From Candidatus Micrarchaeota archaeon (GTDB lineage Archaea; Micrarchaeota; Micrarchaeia; Micrarchaeales; CABMGC01), in NCBI GenBank assembly GCA_028867025.1, contig JAGWHC010000002.1:2561-66560 (forward strand): a DNA stretch of 64,000 nucleotides, in the 5' to 3' direction. The notes beneath the pieces were generated by a model, which searched no databases, was not told the DNA's origin, and worked only from the letters and a program-made list of their open reading frames with translations. Positions 38,383 to 64,000 of this stretch are shown here, piece after piece (within the stretch, counting starts at the first letter, position 1; every line of letters starts with the position of its first letter). Both the position numbers and the translations under genes were made by a program.

Positions 38383-38411
38383 TCGCGGAAATAAACACAC
38401 CAGCCATTGAC

Positions 38412-39895
38412 ACCAGTCGATGCTGCTGGAGGACACTGCTATCAGATTTCGACAGCCATGCAAGTTTGCTCACCGGCTTCGGTGGGCGGCGCACGGCTCA
38501 GTAACGCGTACTCAATCTAACCTAGAGAGGGGCATAACGTTGGGAAACTGACGCTAATATCACATGGGCCAGGGACTCTGGAATGGAATCTTGGCCGAAA
38601 TCGCTGTGAAAAATGCATCACAGCGGCTCTAGGATGGGAGTGCGTCGGATCAGGCAGATGGCGGGGTAACGGCCCACCATACCTTTGACCCGTAGGGGCT
38701 GTGGAAGCAGAAGCCCCGAGAAGGGCACTGAGACAAGGGCCCTAGCGCTACGGCGTGCAGCAGGCGCGAAACCTCCACAATGCGCGAAAGCGTGATGGGG
38801 GGAGTCTGAGTGGCGCACTTCGGTGTGCCTTTTGCCAAGTCTAGTTAGCTTGGCGAATAAGTGCTGGGTAAGACCGGTGGCAGCCGCCACGGTAATACCG
38901 GCGGCACAAGTGGTGTCCGCGATTATTGGGCTTAAAGGGCCAGTAGCCTGTTGGAACCGTCCCAAGTGAAATGTCAGCGCTCAACGTTGACTCGGGCTTG
39001 GGATACCTTCCGACTAGGGAGTGGGAGAGGTCAGGGGTACTTATGGGGTAGGGGTAAAATCCTGTAATCCTATAAGGACCACCGGTGGCGAAGGCGCCTG
39101 ACCAGAACACATCCGACGGTGAGTGGCTAAGGCTAGGAGAACGAATCGGATTAGATACCCGAGTAGCCCTAGCAGTAAATTATGCAGACTCAGGTGTTGC
39201 ACCACTTTTTAGTGGCGCAGTACCGTAGGGAAACTGATAAGTCTGCCGCCTGGGGAGTACGGCCGCAAGGTTGAAACTTAAAGCAATTGGCGGGGGAGCA
39301 CCACAAGGGGTGGATGCTGCGGTTTAATTGAATTCAACGTCCGAAATATCACCTGGAGCGACGGCAGGATGAAGGTCAGACTGAAGATCTTGCCTAACGA
39401 GCCGAGAGGTGGTGCATGGCGATCGTCAGCTCGTGGTGTGAACTGTCCGGTTAAGTCCGGTAACGAGCGAGACCCTCATGAACAGTTGCAACCGTCGAAG
39501 AGATTCGGCGGGCACTCTGTTCGGACCGCCTCCGTTTAAGGAGGAGGAAGGAGAGGGCGACGGTACGTCAGTATGCCCCGAATCTCCAGGGCTACACGCG
39601 GCATACAGAGGCTGCTACAATGGGTTGCGACCCCGAAAGGGGAGGCTAATCCCCCAAAAGCAGTCAAAGTCCGGATTGAGGGCTGAAACTCGCCCTCATG
39701 AAGCTGGAATCCCTAGTAATCGCGTATCACTATTGCGCGGTGAATGTGTCCCCGCTCCTTGCACACACCGCCTGTCAAGTCACCCAAGCGAGGTTTTAGT
39801 GAGGCAGCGCCTACGGCGTTTTCGAACTAATGCTTTGTGAGGGGGGCTAAGTCATAACAAGGTATCCGTAGGGGAACCTGCGGATAGATCACCTC
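38412..39895 (+). rRNA. rrs: 16S ribosomal RNA (not linked to 23S)
   Basis: Conserved blocks run throughout: ...GGCAGCCGCCACGGTAATACC..., GGATTAGATACCC, GCACACACCGCCTGTCA, GTCATAACAAGGTATCCGTAGGGGAACCTGCGGATAGATCACCTC. The ends were estimated by comparison with canonical archaeal termini and are good to a few nt. Confidence 0.95.
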
Positions 39896-39921
39896 GAAAC
39901 TTTTTTGTTTCGTTTAGCAGG

Positions 39922-52606: not shown

Positions 52607-53236
52607 TCAGTTCCTGAACGCGGAACGCAGCCTGCCTGTGACCTGCATCGCGTTCGTCAGTTCCTTTGCGAAAAGCTGAAGCTGCTCCTGGTCCGGTATG
52701 TACTTCCTTATCTTCCCCTCTTCCTCCTTGAAGAACTTGGCCGGCGAGCTGTTGTACATGTTCCTCATTATGTTCCTTATGTCGTCCCAGTCCTTGTCTC
52801 GGCCCGCGGTATACTTGATGAGCACAAGATAGCCAGGATGCACGACCCTTACTGTGCCTTCCTTGGTAAGCGTCCTTTCAAGCGCCGTCTCGAGTATGTC
52901 ACTCCTCTCGACCCCGCCGACGTTGTCCTTGTAGAAGAAGTCGATCTGCGCGCCGCTGTAGTTATCGTTCACCCCCACAATCTCTGACCCCTGCGTCCTG
53001 GGTATCATGCCCATCTCGAGCGCCTTCACGTCGAAGTCCTCAATCTCCGAGGGCTTCTTGGAGACCACGACGTCAACGTCGTGCGTGTCCCTCTTGCTGT
53101 TGAAGCAGTATATGTTGACGGCCCTGCCGCCTATTATCACAACATCGTCCTTTCCGAAGATGTCGCTCAGCCTGTCGTAGATGTCCTTGATTGCATAAGT
53201 CGGTATGTCAGACCTGTGCTTTAATCCCAGTGGCAT
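52607..53236 (-). CDS. Nucleotidyltransferase-fold protein (minimal NTase / AbiEii-like)
   Basis: VVIIGGRAVNIYCFNSKRDTHDVDVVV fits the G-[GS]-x(9-13)-D-x-D NTase signature. Confidence 0.5.
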   Translation of the reverse strand: MPLGLKHRSDIPTYAIKDIYDRLSDIFGKDDVVIIGGRAVNIYCFNSKRDTHDVDVVVSKKPSEIEDFDVKALEMGMIPRTQGSEIVGVNDNYSGAQIDFFYKDNVGGVERSDILETALERTLTKEGTVRVVHPGYLVLIKYTAGRDKDWDDIRNIMRNMYNSSPAKFFKEEEGKIRKYIPDQEQLQLFAKELTNAMQVTGRLRSAFRN

Positions 53237-53309: not shown

Positions 53310-54044
53310 CTACCTTCTCCTGCGCCTTGCGCTCTTTCTTGTAGTGCGCTTGCGTGCTCTCGCAGTGGGTCTCCTGCCTCCCGCGCGGCGCCTTGACTCC
53401 ATAGCCTTGAACTCCGCATAGGTCATCTTCTTCTCCTTCTTGGGCAGCGGCCTGAACGCCTTCGCCTTCTTAGCCGCCTTCTTGCCGGCAGCCCTCTTCG
53501 GAGCCCTCCTTACCCTGATGAAGTAGTATGAGCCCGCAGCGCCCAGGCCCGCGGCGACGGCCACACCTGCTATTATGTAGTCGATGAGCGGAAGCGGCTT
53601 TGCCGGAAGCGCGGTTATAGTGAACAGCTTCACCACCCCTACAGAGAGAGTGGCTCCTCCGTTGAGCGCAGTTGTGTTGCTCGCCTCCTCTACCGCCACC
53701 CCGGCGCGCCACGCTGTCCCAACTGTTGCATTGTAAGGTACTTTCACTGTTATGTTGATGAAGATGTTCTCCCTCGGAAGCATCACGCCTTTTGTAGGGC
53801 TGATTATGATCGTGGGCGACATCACGTTCGCCACTGCGTTGACCTGAGATCTGGTGGCGTAGTATATGGACTGGTTCGCGCAGCTGTTGAACACCTGCAT
53901 CTGCAGCGTCTCGTTGCTTCCGGCGCTTACATTGAAGCTGATCTTGCCAGCCACTTCGCCTATGCACGCTGAGGAAAGTCCTGAGAACAAGAAAAGGGCT
54001 AGCAGGAATACAGACGCTAGATACGAGCCTGCCCTCCTAACCAT
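53310..54044 (-). CDS. Bitopic membrane protein: signal peptide, one Ig-like beta domain, TM helix, ~68-aa poly-basic cytoplasmic tail
   Basis: The signal peptide is YLASVFLLALFLFSGLSSA. The beta-rich ectodomain includes ISFNVSAGSNETLQMQVFN...IIISPTKGVMLPRENIFINITVKV, followed by the TM helix IDYIIAGVAVAAGLGAAGSYYFI. The tail is RVRRAPKRAAGKKAAKKAK...RKRTTRKSARRRRR. Confidence 0.6.
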   Translation of the reverse strand: MVRRAGSYLASVFLLALFLFSGLSSACIGEVAGKISFNVSAGSNETLQMQVFNSCANQSIYYATRSQVNAVANVMSPTIIISPTKGVMLPRENIFINITVKVPYNATVGTAWRAGVAVEEASNTTALNGGATLSVGVVKLFTITALPAKPLPLIDYIIAGVAVAAGLGAAGSYYFIRVRRAPKRAAGKKAAKKAKAFRPLPKKEKKMTYAEFKAMESRRRAGGRRPTARARKRTTRKSARRRRR

Positions 54045-54075: not shown

Positions 54076-54618
54076 CTAGCAACTGAATGTTACTGTTATG
54101 CCCTGCGTGTACGTGCCCGGGACCTGGCCGGTTGGTACGTTGAGTCCGAAGAAGAGGTTAGCGGAAGTGCCCACCGGGACGAAAATCTGCGTGTCCGCTG
54201 TTATGGAGTTGGTGAGCTGGTTGCCGTTGTTGGCCGCATGCGTCTGCCCGTCCCAAAGCGTGTTGCCTACCAGGAAGTTTCCTACTCCTCCATCCTGCCA
54301 GTTGCCGCTAAGTGCCACACCCGAGTCTGAGTAGAGAAGTATGTTCGTGCTTACCGATCCCGAGTCGGTGACCTTCTCGGCGTTGGACGTGGATGCTGAG
54401 AATCCAGGCTGCACAGAGCCGAAGTTGATCACTGTGTTGGTTATTAATGGGACGCACACTCCTGACACCTGCACCTTCGTGGTTATGCCGTTGAAGGTGT
54501 TCGTTGTCGAGGCGAAGACCAGCGCCGCCGGGCTGAATATAGCGATAAGAGTAACAGCTATCATCGCAGATACTGTCAAGAACGCGAATGCTGATTGTAT
54601 GGTTTTTTTGGCTAGCAT
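54076..54618 (-). CDS. Small secreted protein, Cys-bounded beta module paralogous to the adhesin C-terminus (candidate fibre subunit)
   Basis: It has a Sec-type signal peptide ending VFA/S. The mature part is CVPLITNTVINFGSV...GNTLWDG...NNGNQLTNSITADT...LFFGLNVPTGQVPGTYTQGITVTFSC. It shares 20-nt and 37-nt identical tracts with 55226..55600. Confidence 0.65.
   Translation of the reverse strand: MLAKKTIQSAFAFLTVSAMIAVTLIAIFSPAALVFASTTNTFNGITTKVQVSGVCVPLITNTVINFGSVQPGFSASTSNAEKVTDSGSVSTNILLYSDSGVALSGNWQDGGVGNFLVGNTLWDGQTHAANNGNQLTNSITADTQIFVPVGTSANLFFGLNVPTGQVPGTYTQGITVTFSC
54092..54280. repeat. Dispersed repeat copy A (3' end of small-subunit gene)
   Basis: It is collinear with 55245..55433 at a constant offset of 1153 nt. 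Identical tracts are ACTGTTATGCCCTGCGTGTA (54092-54111 = 55245-55264) and GTTATGGAGTTGGTGAGCTGGTTGCCGTTGTTGGCCG (54200-54236 = 55353-55389). A 23-nt core also occurs at 54748-54770. Confidence 0.8.
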
Positions 54619-55136
54619 GATAGCATCACATTCACTGTGGTCTGGTAGGTCCCTGGCAGTGCGGGCGGAGGAACGTTTGTCCCGAAGTATACCGTGCCTG
54701 TGCCGCCGTTCGCGCTTGCCTGAAGCTGAGTGTCAGCGCCAAGTATTGAGTTGGTGAGCTGGTTGCCGTTTGCCGTGGATCCGTGCGACACGTCGTCCCA
54801 CAGTATGTTGCCTACGAGGAAGGCGTTCGAGAGGTATATGAAGTTGCCTCCGTCGACGAATATGTTGCTCTGGAAGTTGCCGTAGTTGGTTACTGTCTCA
54901 ATGTTTGAGGTGGCCGCGTAGCTGCCTGCAGGCACAGAGCCGAAGTTTATTACAGTGTTGCTTGCCAGCGGTATGCAGGTGTTTGGTATGGCGACGTTGC
55001 CTCCAATTGTGTTGGAGTACGATGCCGCTTGAACGGTAAATGCAGGTCCGAGCAACGAGTAAAGCACCAGTGCGGTGAGCGATGAGACGATAGCAAAGGC
55101 TAGCGCAGACACGACTAGCTCGTTATTTCTCTTCAT
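54612..55136 (-). CDS. Small secreted protein, second paralogue of the Cys-bounded module (candidate fibre subunit)
   Basis: Its signal peptide ends VQA/A. The mature part is CIPLASNTVINFGSV...GNILWDD...NGNQLTNSILGADT...VYFGTNVPPPALPGTYQTTVNVMLSC. It overlaps the next gene by 7 nt. Confidence 0.65.
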   Translation of the reverse strand: MKRNNELVVSALAFAIVSSLTALVLYSLLGPAFTVQAASYSNTIGGNVAIPNTCIPLASNTVINFGSVPAGSYAATSNIETVTNYGNFQSNIFVDGGNFIYLSNAFLVGNILWDDVSHGSTANGNQLTNSILGADTQLQASANGGTGTVYFGTNVPPPALPGTYQTTVNVMLSC

Positions 55137-55225: not shown

Positions 55226-58200
55226 TCACCCGCACGAGAGCGCGACTGTTATGCCCTGCGTGTATGTTCCCGTAGCCTGCCCGGCAGGAACGTTGAGCCC
55301 GAAGAAGAGATCCGCGGTGTCGCTGGATGCGAGCGAGTTGAACGTGTCTGTGGTTATGGAGTTGGTGAGCTGGTTGCCGTTGTTGGCCGTGCGCTTGCTC
55401 AGGTCCCAGAGCGTGTTTCCAGTGAGGAAGCTGTTGCCGAAGTAGATCCAGTTGCCTGTCGTCGTGCTCGTGGAGTAGATTATTATGTTGCCCGTGGCTG
55501 TGCCCGCGTTCGTGATCGGCATCGCGTTCTGCGTCGCCGTTGAGAAGCCCGCCTGCAGGCTGCCGAAGTTTATGAGCGTGTTCGTTATGGTGGGTATGCA
55601 TGTGGCCGCGCTCGGCTTGTTGCTCATGTTGAATATCGTGGGCGCGCCGCTCTGCCAGCCAATGTCCCACGCATAATCCGTGTATGCGCCCCCGCCGCTC
55701 AGGTCGACCATGCCGTTGAGCGTGTACGTCTGCGTGTTCGGCACGGCGTTGTTGAACTTCTGGTACATTGCGTTGGCGTTGTCGTATGTGGGTATGTTAG
55801 CGTTGGCATACGCGACAGCGGCCCCGTCTGTTGTCCAGCTCTCCCCTGCTGACAGCGAGCCGCTGGAGAAGTTCCTCATGAAGCCGAGCACGTACTGGTT
55901 GGTGGTCTGAAACTCGGCGATCACGTTGCTCGTGGCCACCGAAGTTGCGCCCTTCCAGTACCTGCCCAGGGTGAAGTAGCTGTCGGTGCTTACAGGCCCT
56001 ATGTTGTATCCGGCATTTCCGACAGGATAGAAGTAGCCGCCGCTGGGGCTCGACTTCACGGTCCAGCCTATCGGATTGATTATGTTCTCCGCAAGGTACT
56101 CCTGCGGAGTGCCTGATCCGAGGTTTGAGAGCCAGTGCCTGTAGCCCATGTCGACGCTGTTCCCACCTTCTCCAGTAAGCGTTATACCTACGTTTGCTAT
56201 CCAATTACCGGTCTCGATCCACGTATGGTTCGAGTCCTGGAACGCCCAGGTGACAACTGTGTTGACCACGTTAGCTAGGCTTGCGCTGTTCTGGGCATCA
56301 TCCGATGCCTGGGGGAAGTAGTAGAGCAGCGTGCCTGACGAGGGGTAGTAGGATATAGTGTACGGCTGCACTATCCTGCCGACATCCCATTTTGTTTCCG
56401 TGCCTTCGGCGAAACTGCCATAGATGTTGAACGTCGACGTTGTGAACCTGGCGTCTGCGAAGTTTGGATACAGGTGCCTGTAAGTCCCCGCTCCGGTCCC
56501 TCTGTTGGCTGACTCAACCTGCGTGGTCACGTCCCACTTCTTATCGGTTGACTGCGCGGTGGCGTTGATCACGTAAAGCCCCGGATAGAAATACTGTCCA
56601 GCATTGTTCACGAGCACGCCGTTGTCAAGCAGGTAGAGGCCGTTCCCTGCCGTATCCGTGCCCGGGTTTACCGCTATGTAGTCGCTAGTCACAGCGAAAT
56701 TTGTCAGTGTCACTTCCATGCTCTTCTCCTTTGTGAAGCGGTTGTTTTCGACTACGACATCAGGTATCGTGTTTGCGGCTGGGGTCACGCTGTTCACAGC
56801 GCCGAGGAGGTCTAGGGAGTTGGTGTCGAAGAGGGTGTCGTTGTAGACAACGAACTGTATAGTGCCGGAGGTTGGGCTTACAGATGTCGTAGTGCTAAGT
56901 GCCCCAACGCTGCCCGTGATGACCTTTATTCTTATTCCGCCCAGAGTGTAGATGCCTGAACCTATGCTTGTAGGCGCGTTGGCGTTGCCGCTCTTCCACT
57001 GAATCACGTATCCTGTAGGCACATTGGCGTAGTAGACATTGAGCAGGCCGCCCTGCAGCATATCCATGAGCGTGTTTCCGGTGTCGACTACGTTTCCAGC
57101 CCAAAGCACCGGACCCCACCTGAAGTCGCCCAACGGGGTTAGCAGCCATGGCAGTCGTGTTGCCTCACCGCTGTGCTGTGTGCTTGTCGATACTGTGCTC
57201 GCCTGTCCAATAAGCCCGTTTGTCGGAAAGCCGCCCAGCGCGTTCACTGGTACTATCTGTATGCTGTTTATCCCGTTCACTACGTCGGAGGTGAGGTTCC
57301 AGCCGTGCAGCTGGAACGTGAGCCCGTTGTACGCGTATGTGTCGTAAAAGACGGGATCCTGCATCATGCCGGTTGGCGAGGAAAAGCTCCAGCCAACTAT
57401 CTCGTTAACAGCGTTGGCTCCGCTGACAGTTATCGTGCTGGATATGCTGTTGAACACTGTGCTCGTTCCCTGGTCTGTGCCTATGGCATTGTACGTGTAC
57501 GAAATACCGTTGTTCGGTCCTGCCTGGAAGTAGAGCGTGTTGGAGCCACCTGGCGAGGCAATGACCACGTTGCCCCCGAGGTTCTTGCTGCCGGTCACGT
57601 TGTAGAACTCGATCGTGAACGGGCCCGTGCCGCCGCTGGCCGTTGCTGTGAATGTCTCTGTCTGGCCGGCAAGCACGGTTGAGGGCGTGGCCGTAAACGT
57701 GAGAGAGGGCGGGGGCGGAGCCACAACTGTCATGGTGTTTGTTATAAGCACGTTGTTGACTGTGCTCGCGCTGTCGAGCACGTTGCCGGTGAGCGTGAGC
57801 GTGCCTATGGAGTTGACGTTCTGCGATGAGGTCGGAATCGTGAATGTGCTTATCTCGTTGGTCGCTGCTATCCCGGAGACTATGCTGTTGTATACTATGT
57901 TGACCGGGGTGACGAAGGTATTTGTCACAAGGAAGTTATAGGTGTACGAGCTCTTTCCTCCGGTGACTATCATGTTCAGGGTAACAGGGCTGCCCTGCGC
58001 TGGATTCGGAGAGGAGGTTATCGCAACCGGGAAGAAGCCGTTGTATGCGGTGAATGTGGTAGTAGCAAGGGCATTGTAAGGAGTGGCAGAAGAGTCGACA
58101 ACGTTGGCAGTGAACGTGAGCGTGCCGATCGCGTTCTGCTCATAGGGCAGCGTGAAGCTTACGGAGTTGCTCGTGCTCGAGCTGCTCTGCTGCGAGGCGT

Positions 58201-60736
58201 ATATTACGTTGCTGGTCTGCGTGTTCGTGACGAGGTAGTTGTACGTGTACGGCGTAGTTGTGGCCAAGGCCGATATTGAGACCGAAAGCGCCTCCACCTG
58301 TCCCTGGTCCGCGATCGCGTTGGACACAGTCTGGGAGGTTATGGTTATGCCGTTCTTGATGTAGTTGGCGGATATTATGGCGTCTCCGAGTACTGTTATC
58401 GTATTTGTGGTGCCGGACGTGGGGCTGAGTATGACGTTGGCGGTGTTGGGCGCGTAGACCGTGAAACCGCTGAATGAGTAGCCTGTAGGGGCGACGGGCA
58501 CAAGGGTGTTGGTGCCCAGCACAGTTATGACATTGCCGTTGGCCTGCTGCGTTCCGTTCGTTATTATGTTGCCCGTCGCCGGGTAGTCAAGTAGCAGTAT
58601 GTTGGTCGGGGAATAGACGTACGAGGAGATGGAATACACAGCAGCAGCATCTCCTGAAGTTGAGGTTATCTGGGCCGTATAAGGGCCCGGAGCCAGCGCG
58701 TTGCACGTCTGGATGACCACCTTCGTGCCCGTCTTTGTGCTTCCCTCCGTGGCCGTCTGGAGCGTTGCGCAGCCTGTCTGCGGAGTGCTTATCGTGGCGC
58801 CCGCGTCTCCAGCCACTCCGAAAATCAACAAAACAAGGCTATTCGACAGCTTTTCGGTGTAAGTCAAGCTGGCTGTCGAGCCCAAGGTGTTCACGGTTAT
58901 TATGTTGACATCAGCGACCGCCGTATTAGCAACGTTCGCGCCGTAGCTGACCAGCGACTGCGAGTACGTGGTAGCCGACAAGGTTACGGAGCCAAAGTTG
59001 CCAAGTGTGTTGCGCCCTATGGCTGTGAGGTTGGTGTACCTTTTGGCGCCTTGGCCGGTCGACACCCCGTTTGTTTCGTTGGAGTTGTTGGTCCAGCTGA
59101 TGCTTTTGCTCGCCGTGTTTGGCTGGGTGTGCGACGCGACGCCGAAGAAGTAGCTCATGTAGTTCGTGCCAAGCGTGTTGCTCACCGTGGCCGTCGTGCT
59201 CGTCACGCCGTTGTACGTGAAGCCCACAACGTAGCCGGAGAGCGAGTTTGAATCCGCTGTATAGAAGTAGGAGGTTGCGTTGGAACCCGCGAGGCTTGTC
59301 GGCAGCGCATTCCAGCTGCCCGAGCCGGGGTAGTACTTGAAGAGCCTTATGCTAGAGACGCTTGTATTTTCCTGAGCAATCCACGAGCTTGGCACCGAGA
59401 AGTTGTAGGTGGCGTTATTGACATACAGGTCAATGTTGTTCTTGCCCGTGCCTATGCTGCCGTTTATCTGCATGAACTGGTACACTCCGAAGCGTGGTTG
59501 CGTGAGACTGCTCGGGACGGCAGAGCTGTTGCTTATTGTGATGTTGGCCTGGAGGTTCTGCGCCGTGAAGTTGATCTCTATGTTCCTGAGTACTGATTTG
59601 CTCAGCGTTATTCTGGATCTGGAACCTACCGTTCCCTGGAAACTGTATCTGCCGTTAGTGCCGTTGAACGTTGAGACGTAGTTCTGAATAGCAGGTATGG
59701 TGGTGGTAGAGCTCGTGCTTACAGACGTGGTTGTCGAAGACGTAGAGCTGCTGCCCACAGTCGTGGTGGACGTTGAGGTGATTGTCGAAGTTGTCGAAGT
59801 TGTTGTGGTCTTTGGAGCCGACGCAACACTTATCGTGTTGCTTCCGAACGCGCCGCTGCCTGAGGAGTCGAGCACATTAGCGGTGATTATTAGTGTGCCT
59901 ATATCATTTGACTCCACTGGAAGGGTGAAACTGACCGAATTGCTCGTGAGCGAGTTGCTTACCTGTGCAGCAAAGACCGAGTTGCCTGTGTTGGTATTGC
60001 TCACGGCAAAGCTGTACGTGTATGGCGGCTCCCCACCGGTCACTCTTGCGGTTAGCAGCTCGTACTGGCCCTGTGCCGCTGACTTGTTGGACGCGTAGAT
60101 GCCGATGAAGGCAAACCGCTGTATCGAGTTTGCTGCGGATACTGTCATGGAATTGCTCGCTGAAATGCCTGCCCCCCTCGAATCCGTTATGTTGACCCTG
60201 ACCGTCAGCGTTCCAACGTCGTTCGCCTCTGCAGGCAGCGAAAACCCTGTGCTGCCTTGAGTTTGCGAGCTCGAAACCAGCTTCTGGAAGATTATGTTGC
60301 CCGTGTTTGTGTTGCTCACTATGAAATTGTACGCGTACGGCGCAGTGCCGCCGGTGATCGCCGCAGTAAGCGTTTCGCTCTGCCCCTGCGTTGCTGTCGA
60401 ATTCGAAACAGTCAGATAGTCGAAACCTAGTAGCGCTATGGTGGTCGTGACGCTTGTCGTGCTTGCCGAAGTTGTGGAGGAGGTGGTTGTGCTTGTACTC
60501 AGCGTTGTTGTGGATGATGAGGTGCTGGTTGAACTCAGCGTGTTCGTCTGGTTTCCGGTAGATGCGAAGAGCAGGTGGGAATTTCCGTGGTGCGCCGCGT
60601 ACTGCTGCTGGGCTTGTGACGCTGACGGAGCGCTGCTCGGCACCTGCGGCAGCTGCGGAAGTTGGATCTTGCTTGCGACGAACAGGATCATGAGCAGTAT
60701 TATCAGTGTTAGAAGATTTCCGGTCAGGTTGCCCAT
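55226..60736 (-). CDS. Giant (1836 aa) N-terminally anchored or secreted multi-domain surface protein (adhesin-like)
   Basis: It has an N-terminal hydrophobic helix, two Ser/Thr-only linkers and five Ig-like modules with the GG(T/E/K)xxY(T/A)Y motif. A PGF-pre-PGF-like segment (IRLFKYYPGSGSWNALPTS...YFYTADSNSLSGYVVG) and a ~550-aa unassigned domain follow. The C-terminal 124-aa Cys-bounded module ends GTYTQGITVALSCG. Confidence 0.8.
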   Translation of the reverse strand: MGNLTGNLLTLIILLMILFVASKIQLPQLPQVPSSAPSASQAQQQYAAHHGNSHLLFASTGNQTNTLSSTSTSSSTTTLSTSTTTSSTTSASTTSVTTTIALLGFDYLTVSNSTATQGQSETLTAAITGGTAPYAYNFIVSNTNTGNIIFQKLVSSSQTQGSTGFSLPAEANDVGTLTVRVNITDSRGAGISASNSMTVSAANSIQRFAFIGIYASNKSAAQGQYELLTARVTGGEPPYTYSFAVSNTNTGNSVFAAQVSNSLTSNSVSFTLPVESNDIGTLIITANVLDSSGSGAFGSNTISVASAPKTTTTSTTSTITSTSTTTVGSSSTSSTTTSVSTSSTTTIPAIQNYVSTFNGTNGRYSFQGTVGSRSRITLSKSVLRNIEINFTAQNLQANITISNSSAVPSSLTQPRFGVYQFMQINGSIGTGKNNIDLYVNNATYNFSVPSSWIAQENTSVSSIRLFKYYPGSGSWNALPTSLAGSNATSYFYTADSNSLSGYVVGFTYNGVTSTTATVSNTLGTNYMSYFFGVASHTQPNTASKSISWTNNSNETNGVSTGQGAKRYTNLTAIGRNTLGNFGSVTLSATTYSQSLVSYGANVANTAVADVNIITVNTLGSTASLTYTEKLSNSLVLLIFGVAGDAGATISTPQTGCATLQTATEGSTKTGTKVVIQTCNALAPGPYTAQITSTSGDAAAVYSISSYVYSPTNILLLDYPATGNIITNGTQQANGNVITVLGTNTLVPVAPTGYSFSGFTVYAPNTANVILSPTSGTTNTITVLGDAIISANYIKNGITITSQTVSNAIADQGQVEALSVSISALATTTPYTYNYLVTNTQTSNVIYASQQSSSSTSNSVSFTLPYEQNAIGTLTFTANVVDSSATPYNALATTTFTAYNGFFPVAITSSPNPAQGSPVTLNMIVTGGKSSYTYNFLVTNTFVTPVNIVYNSIVSGIAATNEISTFTIPTSSQNVNSIGTLTLTGNVLDSASTVNNVLITNTMTVVAPPPPSLTFTATPSTVLAGQTETFTATASGGTGPFTIEFYNVTGSKNLGGNVVIASPGGSNTLYFQAGPNNGISYTYNAIGTDQGTSTVFNSISSTITVSGANAVNEIVGWSFSSPTGMMQDPVFYDTYAYNGLTFQLHGWNLTSDVVNGINSIQIVPVNALGGFPTNGLIGQASTVSTSTQHSGEATRLPWLLTPLGDFRWGPVLWAGNVVDTGNTLMDMLQGGLLNVYYANVPTGYVIQWKSGNANAPTSIGSGIYTLGGIRIKVITGSVGALSTTTSVSPTSGTIQFVVYNDTLFDTNSLDLLGAVNSVTPAANTIPDVVVENNRFTKEKSMEVTLTNFAVTSDYIAVNPGTDTAGNGLYLLDNGVLVNNAGQYFYPGLYVINATAQSTDKKWDVTTQVESANRGTGAGTYRHLYPNFADARFTTSTFNIYGSFAEGTETKWDVGRIVQPYTISYYPSSGTLLYYFPQASDDAQNSASLANVVNTVVTWAFQDSNHTWIETGNWIANVGITLTGEGGNSVDMGYRHWLSNLGSGTPQEYLAENIINPIGWTVKSSPSGGYFYPVGNAGYNIGPVSTDSYFTLGRYWKGATSVATSNVIAEFQTTNQYVLGFMRNFSSGSLSAGESWTTDGAAVAYANANIPTYDNANAMYQKFNNAVPNTQTYTLNGMVDLSGGGAYTDYAWDIGWQSGAPTIFNMSNKPSAATCIPTITNTLINFGSLQAGFSTATQNAMPITNAGTATGNIIIYSTSTTTGNWIYFGNSFLTGNTLWDLSKRTANNGNQLTNSITTDTFNSLASSDTADLFFGLNVPAGQATGTYTQGITVALSCG
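55245..55433. repeat. Dispersed repeat copy B (3' end of giant adhesin gene)
   Basis: See copy A. Confidence 0.8.
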
Positions 60737-60827: not shown

Positions 60828-61553
60828 CTAGAAATTGTCCCCGATTATGCGTTCGTAGTGCGACGCCAATTGCGTTATCCCCTGGGAGAAAGGCGCGTCG
60901 TCGTTTTCAAGAAAGAGGGGTATCTGCTTGGCTATGCTCACCGGCACCTCTTGATCCTCTGGAAGCACTGCCAGGGCTTTCTTGTCCAGGCCCTCCTCGA
61001 TCTCCTCGATCGTGATCTCATGCTTCTCCTTCGTCACCCTGTTTACCACAAGGCTGGTTTTGAGGTTGTGCTTGGCGTAAATGTTGGAAAGCCTTATCAC
61101 CGACGTTAGCGATGGCAGGTCCGGGGTTGCGACAAGCAGCGCCTCGTCATGATAGACGAGCACCCTTTCATTGACTATCCCCGGAGACGTGTCGAAAATC
61201 GCGAAATCGTAATCCGTTTCCTTGAGCGGTCCGCCGACCCTGTCGATCTCATCAGGGGTCAGGGTTACTTCGCCTTCGAAGATCGAGCCTGGCAGGACGT
61301 CAAGTCCTGCGGGGAAGTACTTGACCAACGCACCCTCTACGGTCACATGGCCTGCAAAAACGTCCTTTATACCTGTGGTTATCGCTTCTAGCCTGAGATG
61401 CATGCCTACAGAGGGGTTCGACAGGTCAGCGTCTGCAAGAAGCACCTTGTGGCCCCTTGTGCTGAGCGCGGCAGCGAGATTCACCGCTATGACAGTCTTG
61501 CCTACCCCGCCCTTCTGCGAAGACACTCTTATGAAATAGGGCTTCTTTGCCAT
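60828..61553 (-). CDS. ParA/MinD-family ATPase (short form)
   Basis: It has the deviant Walker A SSQKGGVGKT, Switch-like LLADADLSNP, Walker B DFAIFDTSPG and ATPDLPSLTS. Confidence 0.8.
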   Translation of the reverse strand: MAKKPYFIRVSSQKGGVGKTVIAVNLAAALSTRGHKVLLADADLSNPSVGMHLRLEAITTGIKDVFAGHVTVEGALVKYFPAGLDVLPGSIFEGEVTLTPDEIDRVGGPLKETDYDFAIFDTSPGIVNERVLVYHDEALLVATPDLPSLTSVIRLSNIYAKHNLKTSLVVNRVTKEKHEITIEEIEEGLDKKALAVLPEDQEVPVSIAKQIPLFLENDDAPFSQGITQLASHYERIIGDNF

Positions 61554-61560
61554 GCGAACA

Positions 61561-62955
61561 TCAGGTTTCTACTTCTGAGCTTCCCCCAGGCTCTTCGCCA
61601 CCTTCTTCTGGCGAAGGCGACGCCTCGTTTGTGTCTTGTGAAGCTCCCCCGGCTTCCGCATCATCCTCGTCTTCGTCCTTTTCTTTTTCCTCTGCAGGCT
61701 CAGAGATCGGGGACAGGCCCCAGGCTAACGAGTCCGCTCTCGCTTTTGCGATCTTATTCAAGCTCTTATTTCCGTCGTCTGCCGCTTCGTTTTTAGGCCT
61801 TTTTACAGCGGCACCCTTGCTGCGGTTATTCTTCTGACTCTTCCTCGCCGCTGCTTTCTTCAGCTTCGATCTCTTCTTTGCCTTGTTCTTGCCTTTCGTC
61901 TTCAGTTCCTTAGCGCTCTTCCTCAGTTCCTTGGCCTGCTCCTTCCTCAATTCCACCTGCTTCCTGGCCTCGATCTTCCTCTTCATCTCTGCCTTGCGCG
62001 CCAGCTCCTCGGCCTTCGCCTTGGCCTCCATCTTCTTCCTCATGGACTCTATCTCGCGCTTCGCCTTCGACTCCGCCTCTGCGCGCTCCTTCTCAATCTT
62101 CTCGGCAAGCAGCGCGCGCTGCCTCTTCTCCTCCTTCTTCAACGCCTCCGCCGCGATCTTGCTTATCTTCTCGCTCTCCTTCCTCTCACGCTCGCCCGAG
62201 AGTCTCTTCCAGTTTGCGAATTGTGGCCCGTGCTGCGACGCTCCGCCTGCTTTCCCCGCGCATGCGTTCGCGAGTTTCTTCATCGCCACTGTGAATGGCG
62301 AGGATTCGCCGCTCAAGTATGCTGGGGTGTGCGCGGCAAGGCTTTCGCTGACAGTTGTGTCCTCAGGAAACGCCACCGTCACCTTTCCTCCCCACGCGTC
62401 CTCTATCTCGCTTATTCTCAGTTCATAGCTCCTGCCCGTAACCCTGTTGAGCGTCAATGTATACCTCTCCTTTATCCCCTTGAGTTCCTCTCCCAGCCTG
62501 AGCGCGCTCGTGAGCGCAGGCAGGTCCGGCGTGGCCACTATCACCGCCTCGTCGAACGGCATCATGTCCTCCTCCTGCTGCAGTCCAGGCGCTGTGTCGA
62601 CTACAACGAAATCGTAGCTGCACCTCTCAAGCTCCTCAACCAGCCTCTTGACGTGCGTGTTTGTCAGCTGGAACGGCTTCGTGCTGAGCATGCCAAGCAC
62701 GCAGTGCATCCCCGTTGGGGCGTGCACAGTCACCACGTTTGCCAGGCTGGCGCCGTCCACCACGAGATTCTCAAAACCCACCTTCGCGTCCTCCATGCCA
62801 AGGTGCAACCCAACCGCGGGATTGTCGGTGTCAGCGTCGACCATCAGCACGCGCTTGTTCGTCAGCTTCAGCGCGACGGCGAGGTTCACAGCTACTGTTG
62901 TCTTGCCTACCCCGCCCTTCTGGCTCAGAACGCCTATTATATACGGCCTCAGCAA
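61561..62955 (-). CDS. ParA/MinD-family ATPase with ~140-aa Lys/Glu-rich coiled-coil and acidic C-terminal tail
   Basis: The N-terminal ~235 aa carry LSQKGGVGKT, MVDADTDNP, DFVVVDTAPG and ATPDLPALTS. A KE/KR-rich segment (KKEEKRQRALLAEKIEKERAEAESKAKREIESMRKKMEAKAKAEE...) follows, then EPAEEKEKDEDEDDAEAGG...EEGGEEPGGSSEVET. Confidence 0.8.
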   Translation of the reverse strand: MLRPYIIGVLSQKGGVGKTTVAVNLAVALKLTNKRVLMVDADTDNPAVGLHLGMEDAKVGFENLVVDGASLANVVTVHAPTGMHCVLGMLSTKPFQLTNTHVKRLVEELERCSYDFVVVDTAPGLQQEEDMMPFDEAVIVATPDLPALTSALRLGEELKGIKERYTLTLNRVTGRSYELRISEIEDAWGGKVTVAFPEDTTVSESLAAHTPAYLSGESSPFTVAMKKLANACAGKAGGASQHGPQFANWKRLSGERERKESEKISKIAAEALKKEEKRQRALLAEKIEKERAEAESKAKREIESMRKKMEAKAKAEELARKAEMKRKIEARKQVELRKEQAKELRKSAKELKTKGKNKAKKRSKLKKAAARKSQKNNRSKGAAVKRPKNEAADDGNKSLNKIAKARADSLAWGLSPISEPAEEKEKDEDEDDAEAGGASQDTNEASPSPEEGGEEPGGSSEVET

Positions 62956-64000
62956 TCACTCACCCTTGTCCCCTTTCAGCTTCTCTCTTATGTCCCTAAG
63001 TTCCTTAACCCTTTCATCGCTGACCCTTTCGCTGCCCCTCTCGCTGCCCTCGGGCTCCTTGTTCGCCGGCTTTGAGATGAGCTGCTTCACCCTGCTTATG
63101 CTGTCTGCCATGCCTGGCCTGCTCTCCCTATTTTCAGGCTGCGCGCCTCCAGGCGGAGGCGGTCCGCGCTCCGATTCGCCATGTCCGAGGCGAGCGCCTC
63201 TGGCCTGCGGCAGGAATCGCACGATGAGGAAAACCACAATCACTACAAATGCGAGCGCAATCAGCGCATTATAGACCTGCATCGAAGCCTGCTGCGCCGC
63301 GGGAAGTATCACGACAGGCACTCTCTGGGTTATGTTGTACTGCCCTGCAATGACGCTCAGCGTGAAGAGGTCAGTGCCCGGAGCCGAATCCTCTATTGTG
63401 AAGTTGGTCGTGACCAATTGGTTGGGAGTGACGTTGAACTTCTGCACGGGGTTGAGCACCTTGCCGCTCGACTCGCTTGTGAACGAGATTGTCATCTGCT
63501 GCGGCACCGAGTCTGTGTAGAATATGGACACCGTGGCGTTTGACAGCGTGTTTGCATACGGAGTGGGAAGGTCGATGCTCACCACCCTCAGCACCTGCGC
63601 CGTGGTTATTGCCGATGGCTGCACGAGAACAGTCTGTATGTACTTCAGCGGGAACTGGTGCACCGGATGGTTTATCGTGTAGTAGCCATAGACGAACTGA
63701 TCAGCTGGCAGGGAGGTTATGTGCCAATCTATGATTATCGTCCCGTTGACGCTGCTCACGTTGTTCGCTATCCCGAATGTGGTTATCTGCGATGTGCTGT
63801 TCACCAGGCCGGGAGGAAATATCGTCTTGACCTCAGTGTTCGTGAGGTTCTCGTTTACAGGGCTGCCTATCTGGATCACTCCGCTGACCTGCTGCGTGTT
63901 GTTGACTATGCTTATCTGGTCGATCACGCTGGGCTGAGCGGTGTTCCTTGCGCTTATCGTGACGGAGATGTACTCCACCTGGGTCGTCGTACCTGTGCTG
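62956..64000 (-). CDS. Bitopic surface protein (beta-rich ectodomain, TM helix, ~85-aa charged cytoplasmic tail); N-terminus outside window
   Basis: The frame stays open beyond the GTG at 63978 to the window edge. The sequon-rich beta ectodomain is followed by the TM helix VYNALIALAFVVIVVFLIV and a charged tail (GESERGPPPPGG...ERVKELRDIREKLKGDKGE). Its stop abuts the start of the long MinD gene. Confidence 0.6.
   Translation of the reverse strand, partial: STGTTTQVEYISVTISARNTAQPSVIDQISIVNNTQQVSGVIQIGSPVNENLTNTEVKTIFPPGLVNSTSQITTFGIANNVSSVNGTIIIDWHITSLPADQFVYGYYTINHPVHQFPLKYIQTVLVQPSAITTAQVLRVVSIDLPTPYANTLSNATVSIFYTDSVPQQMTISFTSESSGKVLNPVQKFNVTPNQLVTTNFTIEDSAPGTDLFTLSVIAGQYNITQRVPVVILPAAQQASMQVYNALIALAFVVIVVFLIVRFLPQARGARLGHGESERGPPPPGGAQPENRESRPGMADSISRVKQLISKPANKEPEGSERGSERVSDERVKELRDIREKLKGDKGE

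Follow-up and report, generated by a model that had tools for sequence, protein, structure and literature searches.

The stretch of DNA analysed here (the window) comprises 64,000 nucleotides (nt) of a 132-kb contig from a Candidatus Micrarchaeota archaeon. It contains a surface cluster of seven closely spaced minus-strand genes, running from SurfA, which encodes a bitopic surface protein, through to the gene for a second bitopic protein of 244 amino acids (aa). Directly downstream of SurfA lies the gene for a long MinD-type ATPase, MinDL (464 aa; 61561..62955, minus strand), with a TTG start that is confirmed by orthologues beginning MLRPYIIGV. We lean, at a little better than even confidence, towards the explanation that MinDL is a cargo-linked ATPase of this surface cluster, that a helix in the cytoplasmic tail of SurfA is its dock, and that the ATPase tail was remodelled in the clade to which this genome belongs. 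The source genome is ~815 kb and 96% complete; the archaeal 16S rRNA gene lies at 38410-39897 of the window, and named matches point to the Micrarchaeota (= Microcaldota) of the DPANN. Genes and transmembrane helices were called by simple open reading frame (ORF) and hydropathy rules, the charges of protein tails were compared across ~800 crude ORFs of the genome, and the order was surveyed in a sample of 61 genomes.

A MinD match was found in 28 other genomes of this sample, three of which carry a housekeeping type only. Among the remaining 25, the cluster-type MinD lies directly downstream of a SurfA homologue in 24, as judged by ORF analysis in 20 genomes and by coordinates only in four. 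The spacing of the two genes mostly ranges from a 26-nt overlap to a 12-nt gap, so that stop and start codons usually abut or overlap, and in the window the SurfA stop codon abuts the MinDL start (0-nt gap). The adjacency spans two families. The SurfA homologues are about 550–780 aa long, and the pair is usually followed by an optional gene for a giant protein, one or two genes resembling that of the small secreted protein s1 (described below), and a gene for a bitopic protein of ~195–256 aa with a polybasic tail. About half of the genomes of the order lack a cluster-type MinD, and in one member of the same genus (G014, a single contig) MinD, SurfA and the small secreted proteins are all absent together. 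A preliminary description of this DNA had proposed an ATPase dedicated to the surface genes. The adjacency to SurfA, the joint absence in G014 and the lack of any division or segregation genes found linked to the cluster MinD support such a dedication, as far as gene content and order can tell. A literature search for MinD proteins of Micrarchaeota or other DPANN tied to surface genes returned only generic division-gene annotations, and the thread-filament paper names no ParA/MinD gene in its text on the Saci_0404-0409 cluster. Two clusters without MinD were seen, one in G027 (L034:18-5893; order giant, s, bitopic, SurfA), where the SurfA tail is without the motif described next, and one in G052 (L036:3545-7265; order SurfA, s, bitopic), where the SurfA tail keeps it.

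The 3′ part of SurfA occupies 62956..64000 (minus strand) of the window, and the gene extends past the window end to give a full ORF of 779 aa (L005:2517-4856, minus strand). The protein has a signal peptide, a weak Ig-like match, a transmembrane helix at about aa 669-701 (nt 63193-63291) and a 78-aa cytoplasmic tail of net charge +1, in agreement with the cytoplasmic tail that had been ascribed to it from the partial sequence. An alignment of 18 tails gave the C-terminal consensus Y-x-x-[ED]-R-A-E-x-L-[KR]-x-[IL]-[RK]-E-x-I-K-R-G. The motif occurs twice per tail in the clade with long-tailed MinDs. In SurfA itself, motif 2 (DERVKELRDIREKLKG, aa 760-775, nt 62971..63018, minus strand) corresponds to the C-terminal basic amphipathic helix found order-wide, and motif 1 (RPGMADSISRVKQLIS, aa 726-741, nt 63073..63120, minus strand) is the copy predicted to lie across the MinD dimer interface. 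The cytoplasmic tails of SurfA are 78–84 aa long in the long-tailed clade, 57–84 aa if genome G020 is included, and 19–38 aa elsewhere. In G027 and G035, two genomes without MinD, the SurfA motif is absent. The specific C-terminal half of SurfA is practically restricted to this order.

Several further features of SurfA were recorded. At about aa 178-200 (L005:4240-4330, past the window end) ~20 consecutive Gly residues separate the N-terminal domain from a Thr/Ser-rich region. The G035 homologue (L035:926-3538) has a 128-aa cytoplasmic tail of pentapeptide-like repeats (ANLxxANLxxADL...) that replaces the basic helix. Some genomes of the order (G117, G146) encode three SurfA paralogues and thus may hold several copies of the module.

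In ParA/MinD systems, the partner protein acts on the ATPase through a short helical peptide with positive charge, which docks at the dimer interface and touches both protomers (PMC13170346). One complex prediction was made with two copies of MinDL(1-260), ATP and the 78-aa SurfA tail. Its interface score (ipSAE) was 0.55, against 0.14 for the best control, and was graded as weak support; 58 of 80 solved complexes had passed the same mark, as had 2 of 110 mismatched pairs, and of these passes only seven among the solved complexes and both among the mismatched pairs scored 0.60 or less. In the predicted complex, SurfA 726-741 lies against both MinD copies; on one copy it contacts residues 50-56 and 89-91, on the other residues 145-156 and 177-187. 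This predicted contact agrees with the comparative evidence, and we treat it as a lead that falls short of proof.

The ATPase core of MinDL (aa 1-238, nt 62242..62955, minus strand) is modelled by AlphaFold2 (AF2) with a predicted local distance difference test score (pLDDT) above 90. The deviant Walker A motif SQKGGVGKT lies at aa 11-19 (nt 62899-62925), the other motif residues are D40/D42 and D120, and K13, K18, D40, D42 and D120 are all invariant in a 23-sequence alignment. The motif ATPDLPALTS falls within the helix aa 145-160, which is part of the predicted partner-binding surface. A second MinD-type ATPase, MinDS (241 aa; 60828..61553, minus strand), is encoded 7 nt downstream. As the preliminary description had reported, the two ORFs share a deviant Walker A motif (SQKGGVGKT in both), DxD and ATPDLP(A/S)LTS; over 228 aa they show 38% identity (E 4e-46). 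Both score above the Pfam cut-offs for CbiA, AAA_31 and ParA. The best NCBIfam model is TIGR01969 (archaeal MinD), with 115.4 bits for MinDL and 135.9 bits for MinDS, each under the cut-off of 201.75, and the solved structures nearest to MinDL are the archaeal MinDs 1ION, 1HYQ and 1G3Q (E 1e-18 to 1e-19). We therefore place both ATPases in a divergent group that is sister to archaeal MinD, and do not count them as TIGR01969 equivalogs.

Most of the orthologous cluster MinDs are 256–273 aa long and end in a canonical membrane-targeting helix, for example GFWARLFGLQ, GGIIAFLKRLFRLGG or SFFSRLFRRKYSY; from this distribution, the ancestral MinD probably reached the membrane via such a C-terminal amphipathic helix. 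The long-tailed MinDs form a monophyletic clade (support 100/99) with G020 as sister, and the membrane-targeting helix is missing from G020 and from all four long-tailed lineages. At the position of the helix in the ~260-aa orthologues, MinDL has GPQFANWKR (aa 243-251, nt 62203..62229, minus strand), which appears to be a degenerate remnant of it, with a hydrophobic moment of 0.28 compared with 0.5–0.8 in the orthologue helices. The long tail is confined to this genus-level clade, where its length varies from 89 to 310 aa among close relatives; a GPxFxxWKR motif, a charged helix and a polybasic stretch are nevertheless kept in all of them despite the length changes. Judged by this phylogenetic distribution, the long charged tail was added recently and in this lineage only. 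A 461-aa ‘long MinD’ in G023 was set aside, as its ORF (L022:3744-5129, G023:C21) runs from a MinD that has a membrane helix of its own into the following, s1-like gene with no stop between. It is either a real MinD-transmembrane-s1 fusion or due to a stop codon that was lost or misassembled; G031, the sister genome, has separate MinD and s1-like genes.

The tail of MinDL was dissected further. Residues 244-351 (nt 61903..62226, minus strand) carry a net charge of +13 from 36 K/R and 23 D/E, and AF2 models these 108 residues as one unbroken helix, with pLDDT 89–98 over most of it; the remainder of the tail is predicted to be disordered except for a helix at 399-408. The preliminary description had read the K/E- and K/R-rich segment as a coiled coil. 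The segment itself is present, with 57% charged and 16% hydrophobic residues, but in the best heptad register only 23% of a/d positions are LIVMFWY and 47% are charged, and the hydrophobic share at a/d reaches 38% at most in any 28-aa window. Opposite-charge pairs at i to i+3 and i+4 are enriched in the helix (z = 3.4). Thus, the low hydrophobic share at a/d, the enrichment of salt-bridge pairs and the single AF2 helix mean that the segment is better read as carrying the signature of an ER/K single alpha-helix than as a heptad coiled coil. If fully helical, it would span about 16 nm. We know of no single alpha-helix described on any ParA/MinD ATPase, though no exhaustive search for one was made. 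By composition, pair spacing and the AF2 model, the putative single alpha-helix of MinDL resembles the ER/K domains of myosin levers and the INCENP ‘coil’, which likewise have an E/K/R composition, i to i+3 and i+4 pairs and no hydrophobic seam (PMC4571873, PMC5347031, PMC5812594). Such helices are often mispredicted as coiled coils and act as rigid spacers (PMC4571873, PMC5812594).

The helix is followed by a polybasic, histone-H1-like patch (aa 352-388, nt 61792..61902, minus strand), predicted to be disordered, with a net charge of +18 and no acidic residue; by a short conserved motif, KSLNKIAKARADSLAW (aa 397-412, nt 61720..61767, minus strand), which contains the AF2 helix at 399-408 and has the counterpart KSIKAMAKARASSM in the relative P0004; and by an acidic, Pro/Gly-containing disordered end (aa 419-464, nt 61564..61701, minus strand), whose net charge of -17 bears out the acidic terminus described earlier. 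None of the other ORFs among the ~800 has a highly charged stretch as long as that of MinDL (137 aa, against 71 aa in second place) or a C-terminus as acidic, so these features of the tail are real outliers. An acidic end is otherwise present only in P0004/L009, which together with MinDL makes two of the four long-tailed lineages; the MinD tails of G002, L010 and P0003 are without it and end in RRRR, like the membrane protein's own tail. The charges of patch and acidic end nearly cancel, at +18/-17 in MinDL and +19/-18 in L009, and the most likely role of the acidic end is therefore to shield or modulate the patch on its own chain.

Comparison with studied systems gives precedents for parts of this arrangement. 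We know of no direct cargo-binding peptide for MinD4 of Haloferax volcanii (HVO_0322). MinD4 resembles MinDL in having an extension, which is needed for its correct localisation, and it positions archaella and chemosensory arrays (10.1101/2020.04.03.021790). The extensions differ in that of MinD4 having acidic and aliphatic blocks and a true terminal membrane-targeting sequence, whereas MinDL has the ER/K helix, the polybasic patch and, like some of its relatives, the acidic end, with the terminal helix lost; in addition, the MinDL gene directly follows that of its candidate partner, an arrangement not reported for MinD4 (10.1101/2020.04.03.021790). With the MinD/MinE, ParB and PomX systems the MinDL orthologues share a deviant Walker A ATPase with a C-terminal amphipathic helix, and the proposed partner would again be a short basic helix at the dimer interface in contact with both protomers (PMC13170346). 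In those systems, however, the peptide is the N-terminus of a soluble protein, whereas here a bitopic surface protein would supply it with its C-terminal cytoplasmic tail, and cargo and activator would thus be a single polypeptide. Neither MinC nor MinE was found in the surface cluster, and no genome search for these families was made. To our knowledge, archaea are generally reported to lack both. TadZ/CpaE, FlhG and BcsQ are also ParA/MinD ATPases encoded in the cluster of the surface machine that they localise. CpaE-annotated proteins are distant matches to MinDL (~30% identity, E 1e-14 to 1e-7), and the CBP_BcsQ Pfam model matches at 33.9 bits (cut-off 21.3). TadZ/CpaE differ in having an N-terminal receiver-like domain, whereas the ATPase domain of MinDL starts at residue 4 and thus leaves no N-terminal domain; TIGR03815 gave 51.6 bits against a cut-off of 154.45, and TIGR03371 was also far below its cut-off.

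Under the explanation that we favour, the ATP-bound MinD dimer would sit at the inner face of the membrane, and its dimer interface would bind the basic amphipathic helix of the SurfA cytoplasmic tail in the mode of the MinE, ParB and PomX peptides on their ATPases. Cycles of ATP hydrolysis would in turn allow MinD to cluster, space or license the assembly of this structure at the surface. In the present clade, the membrane helix would have decayed to GPxFxxWKR and been replaced by a rigid ~16 nm ER/K single-helix spacer followed by the polybasic patch, by which the protein could attach electrostatically to anionic lipid or else to nucleic acid, and the SurfA tail would have been lengthened with duplication of its MinD-binding helix.

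A number of observations weigh against this explanation. One cluster-type MinD (G053, the fourth genome, beside the three with the housekeeping type only, in which MinD matches lie away from SurfA) has no SurfA neighbour, and G052, whose genome is 88% complete, keeps the SurfA motif with no MinD detected. The clusters of G027 and G052 imply that MinD is dispensable for the cluster as such, and the compared genomes are mutually related, so that the counts overstate independent support. The complex score is a weak pass, with a partner pLDDT of 48, and the predicted contact is made via the clade-specific motif 1 instead of the order-wide motif 2. As far as we know, ATPase-activating peptides are N-terminal, and that of SurfA would be C-terminal. 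Finally, the fold matches of the small secreted proteins, by which the surface structure might be identified, are weak.

MinDS has intact motifs, no membrane-targeting helix and no tail, and ends in IIGDNF. It is limited to this genome within its clade: the closest relatives (P0002/G002, P0003, P0004 and P0005) have the same gene order with one MinD only. The two MinDs had been described as paired, but three related lineages of the clade have the tailed copy only, and by gene content the conserved pairing is that of SurfA with one MinD, not of two MinDs. In the tree, MinDS is not sister to MinDL, and its closest matches are cluster MinDs of other genera (43–47% identity); the tree and these identities rule out a recent tandem duplication of MinDL. 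As an extra, genome-specific copy, MinDS may act as heterodimer partner or regulator of MinDL. An independent pair occurs in G011, in the order SurfA, anchorless MinD, MinD with membrane helix. In G002 an orphan MinD (247 aa, no membrane helix; L031:4632-5375, G002:C3) lies between genes for an arginyl-tRNA-synthetase-like and a membrane protein, and the syntenic site in the present genome (C11:541589-541786) is empty. A second surface cluster at the G002 site was considered and rejected, as the 654-aa neighbour of the extra MinD resembles arginyl-tRNA synthetase (C-terminal sequence only).

Downstream of the MinD genes, all on the minus strand, follow the genes for a giant surface protein of 1836 aa (55226..60736), the small secreted proteins s1 (174 aa; 54612..55136) and s2 (180 aa; 54076..54618), and the 244-aa bitopic protein (53310..54044). 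SurfA, the giant protein, s1, s2 and the 244-aa protein have no match in Pfam or NCBIfam that exceeds a family's cut-off. The C-terminal ~130 aa of the giant protein form a Cys-bracketed domain that is common to s1 and s2; in other genera, one ~325-aa protein with two tandem Cys-bracketed domains replaces s1 and s2 (L011:5640-6617, L012:6436-7416, L014:4660-5628 and others). The domain shared by the three proteins is a predicted beta-sandwich. The AF2 model of s1 has a mean pLDDT of 76. Its best Foldseek match in the PDB is the type I fimbrial protein 5n2b (E 0.03), with Ena fibres and Afa/Dr adhesins also among the matches; VIA-align gave Z values of at most 6.3 against generic beta-sandwiches, including the Csu and CS17 pilins; and look-alikes in the Atlas include WxL and camelysin/TasA-like clusters. 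These weak matches, among which fimbrial and fibre subunits recur, hint that s1 may be a fibre subunit, and we infer that the cluster encodes an uncharacterised surface fibre or adhesin system. The cluster contains no type IV pilus ATPase or platform, flagellar genes or cellulose synthase. An identity as a surface layer (S-layer) was rejected, as none of the surface proteins of the cluster matches any Pfam family at the gathering cut-off, including PF05123, the family carried by the known Micrarchaeota S-layer protein (10.1101/2021.04.28.441871). The cytoplasmic tail of the 244-aa protein (aa 172-244, nt 53313-53531; 73 aa) has a net charge of +29 and is the most basic C-terminus of the ~800 ORFs. 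It is thus strongly basic as described before, though with 62% K+R+A the wording ‘almost entirely’ Arg/Lys/Ala slightly overstated its composition.

Directly downstream of the cluster, at 52607-53236 (minus strand), lies a gene for a DUF2204/DUF6036 nucleotidyltransferase-fold protein, which is probably unrelated to the cluster and may be toxin-antitoxin-like. Elsewhere in the genome, contig C11 carries a housekeeping-type MinD, distinct from the cluster type, and four FtsZ/tubulin-family genes, all over the Pfam cut-off (G000:C11:438708-439190, 457505-457981, 626729-627202 and 627750-628229). Two of the four adjoin, and four is a large number for a genome of ~815 kb.

The unusual tails of the cluster proteins invite other explanations. 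The preliminary description had proposed that the acidic end of MinDL pairs with the polybasic tail of the 244-aa protein and so recruits the ATPase. The most acidic and the most basic C-termini among the ~800 ORFs do occur in one seven-gene cluster, and both features are again found together in the L009 lineage. However, the polybasic tail of the bitopic protein (+23 to +30) recurs in 13 of 17 orthologous clusters, whatever tail their MinD has, whereas the acidic end is missing from two of the four long-tailed lineages and from every one of the ~260-aa orthologues, so that acid-base pairing cannot be the conserved mechanism. A charge-matched partner is moreover available on the same chain, and an intramolecular role for the acidic end fits at least as well. 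We regard recruitment by this pairing as improbable, and a contact between the two proteins as at most a lineage-specific extra. Equally doubtful in our view is a switch from membrane to nucleoid, in which the polybasic MinDL tail on its spacer would bind DNA and the nucleoid would serve as a matrix for spacing the apparatus, as for ParA, McdA and PomZ, with the polybasic tail of the bitopic protein too touching nucleic acid. The loss of the membrane helix from G020 and the four long-tailed lineages is in keeping with such a switch, as are patches of the AKK/KKAAARK type devoid of acidic residues and the non-specific DNA binding of ParA-type relatives via positive patches (PMC13170346). Polybasic stretches bind anionic lipids equally well, though, MinDL has no DNA-binding domain, and the bitopic polybasic tail is kept even where MinD retains the canonical membrane helix.

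An obligate heterodimer of MinDL and MinDS, with one subunit tailed or anchored, would fit the intact signature lysines of the deviant Walker A motif in both proteins, the 7-nt distance between their genes and the independent second case in G011. It is hard to reconcile with the single cluster MinD of three of the four lineages of the clade and of most of the order, or with the tree position of MinDS, and we consider it unlikely, if a somewhat better prospect than either of the foregoing. The least credible alternative, to which we give very little weight, is that the MinDs serve general division or segregation and that their surface position is incidental, or that the tail is a neutral low-complexity expansion. 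In Micrarchaeota, the usual annotation of a MinD gene is that of a division gene (PMC8784108), and the length and composition of the tail vary strongly between close relatives. Nonetheless, SurfA and MinD are neighbours in both of two families, their stop and start codons overlapping, about half of the order manages without this MinD, and the housekeeping-type MinD and all four FtsZ-family genes lie on C11, away from the surface cluster. A neutral expansion of the tail is at odds with the non-random spacing of its salt bridges (z = 3.4 to 3.6) and with the retention of helix, polybasic patch and GPxFxxWKR within the clade.

Archaea encode many MinD homologues, of which only a few, such as MinD4 and MinD2 of Haloferax, have been investigated, and how these are coupled to cargo is an open question. 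The cell surface of Micrarchaeota-like DPANN archaea mediates their obligate association with a host. Taking the cargo-linked explanation to its full extent, we would tentatively suggest, as a possibility that falls short of an even chance, a self-contained system: in a DPANN episymbiont, the end of a bitopic surface protein would be a basic helix of the MinE/ParB kind, and this helix would recruit, and might also activate, a MinD that is translated together with it. Two genes would then make up a self-organising system that patterns a host-contact structure, and in this genus the membrane helix would have been lost, the partner helix duplicated, and a ~16-nm spacer added together with a polybasic patch gated by an acidic tail. 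If true, this would make SurfA the first cognate partner proposed for an archaeal MinD. Its C-terminal helix, encoded just upstream of MinD and with a presence that, but for one exception, tracks that of MinD, is a compact and widely replicated candidate for cargo coupling. The MinD tail may represent a natural case of a MinD that has given up its amphipathic helix in favour of a spacer plus polybasic patch, to which an acidic counter-tail may be added, and so bears on how ParA/MinD ATPases change matrix in evolution. The locus as a whole would mark an uncharacterised, order-specific surface structure in Micrarchaeota-like DPANN.

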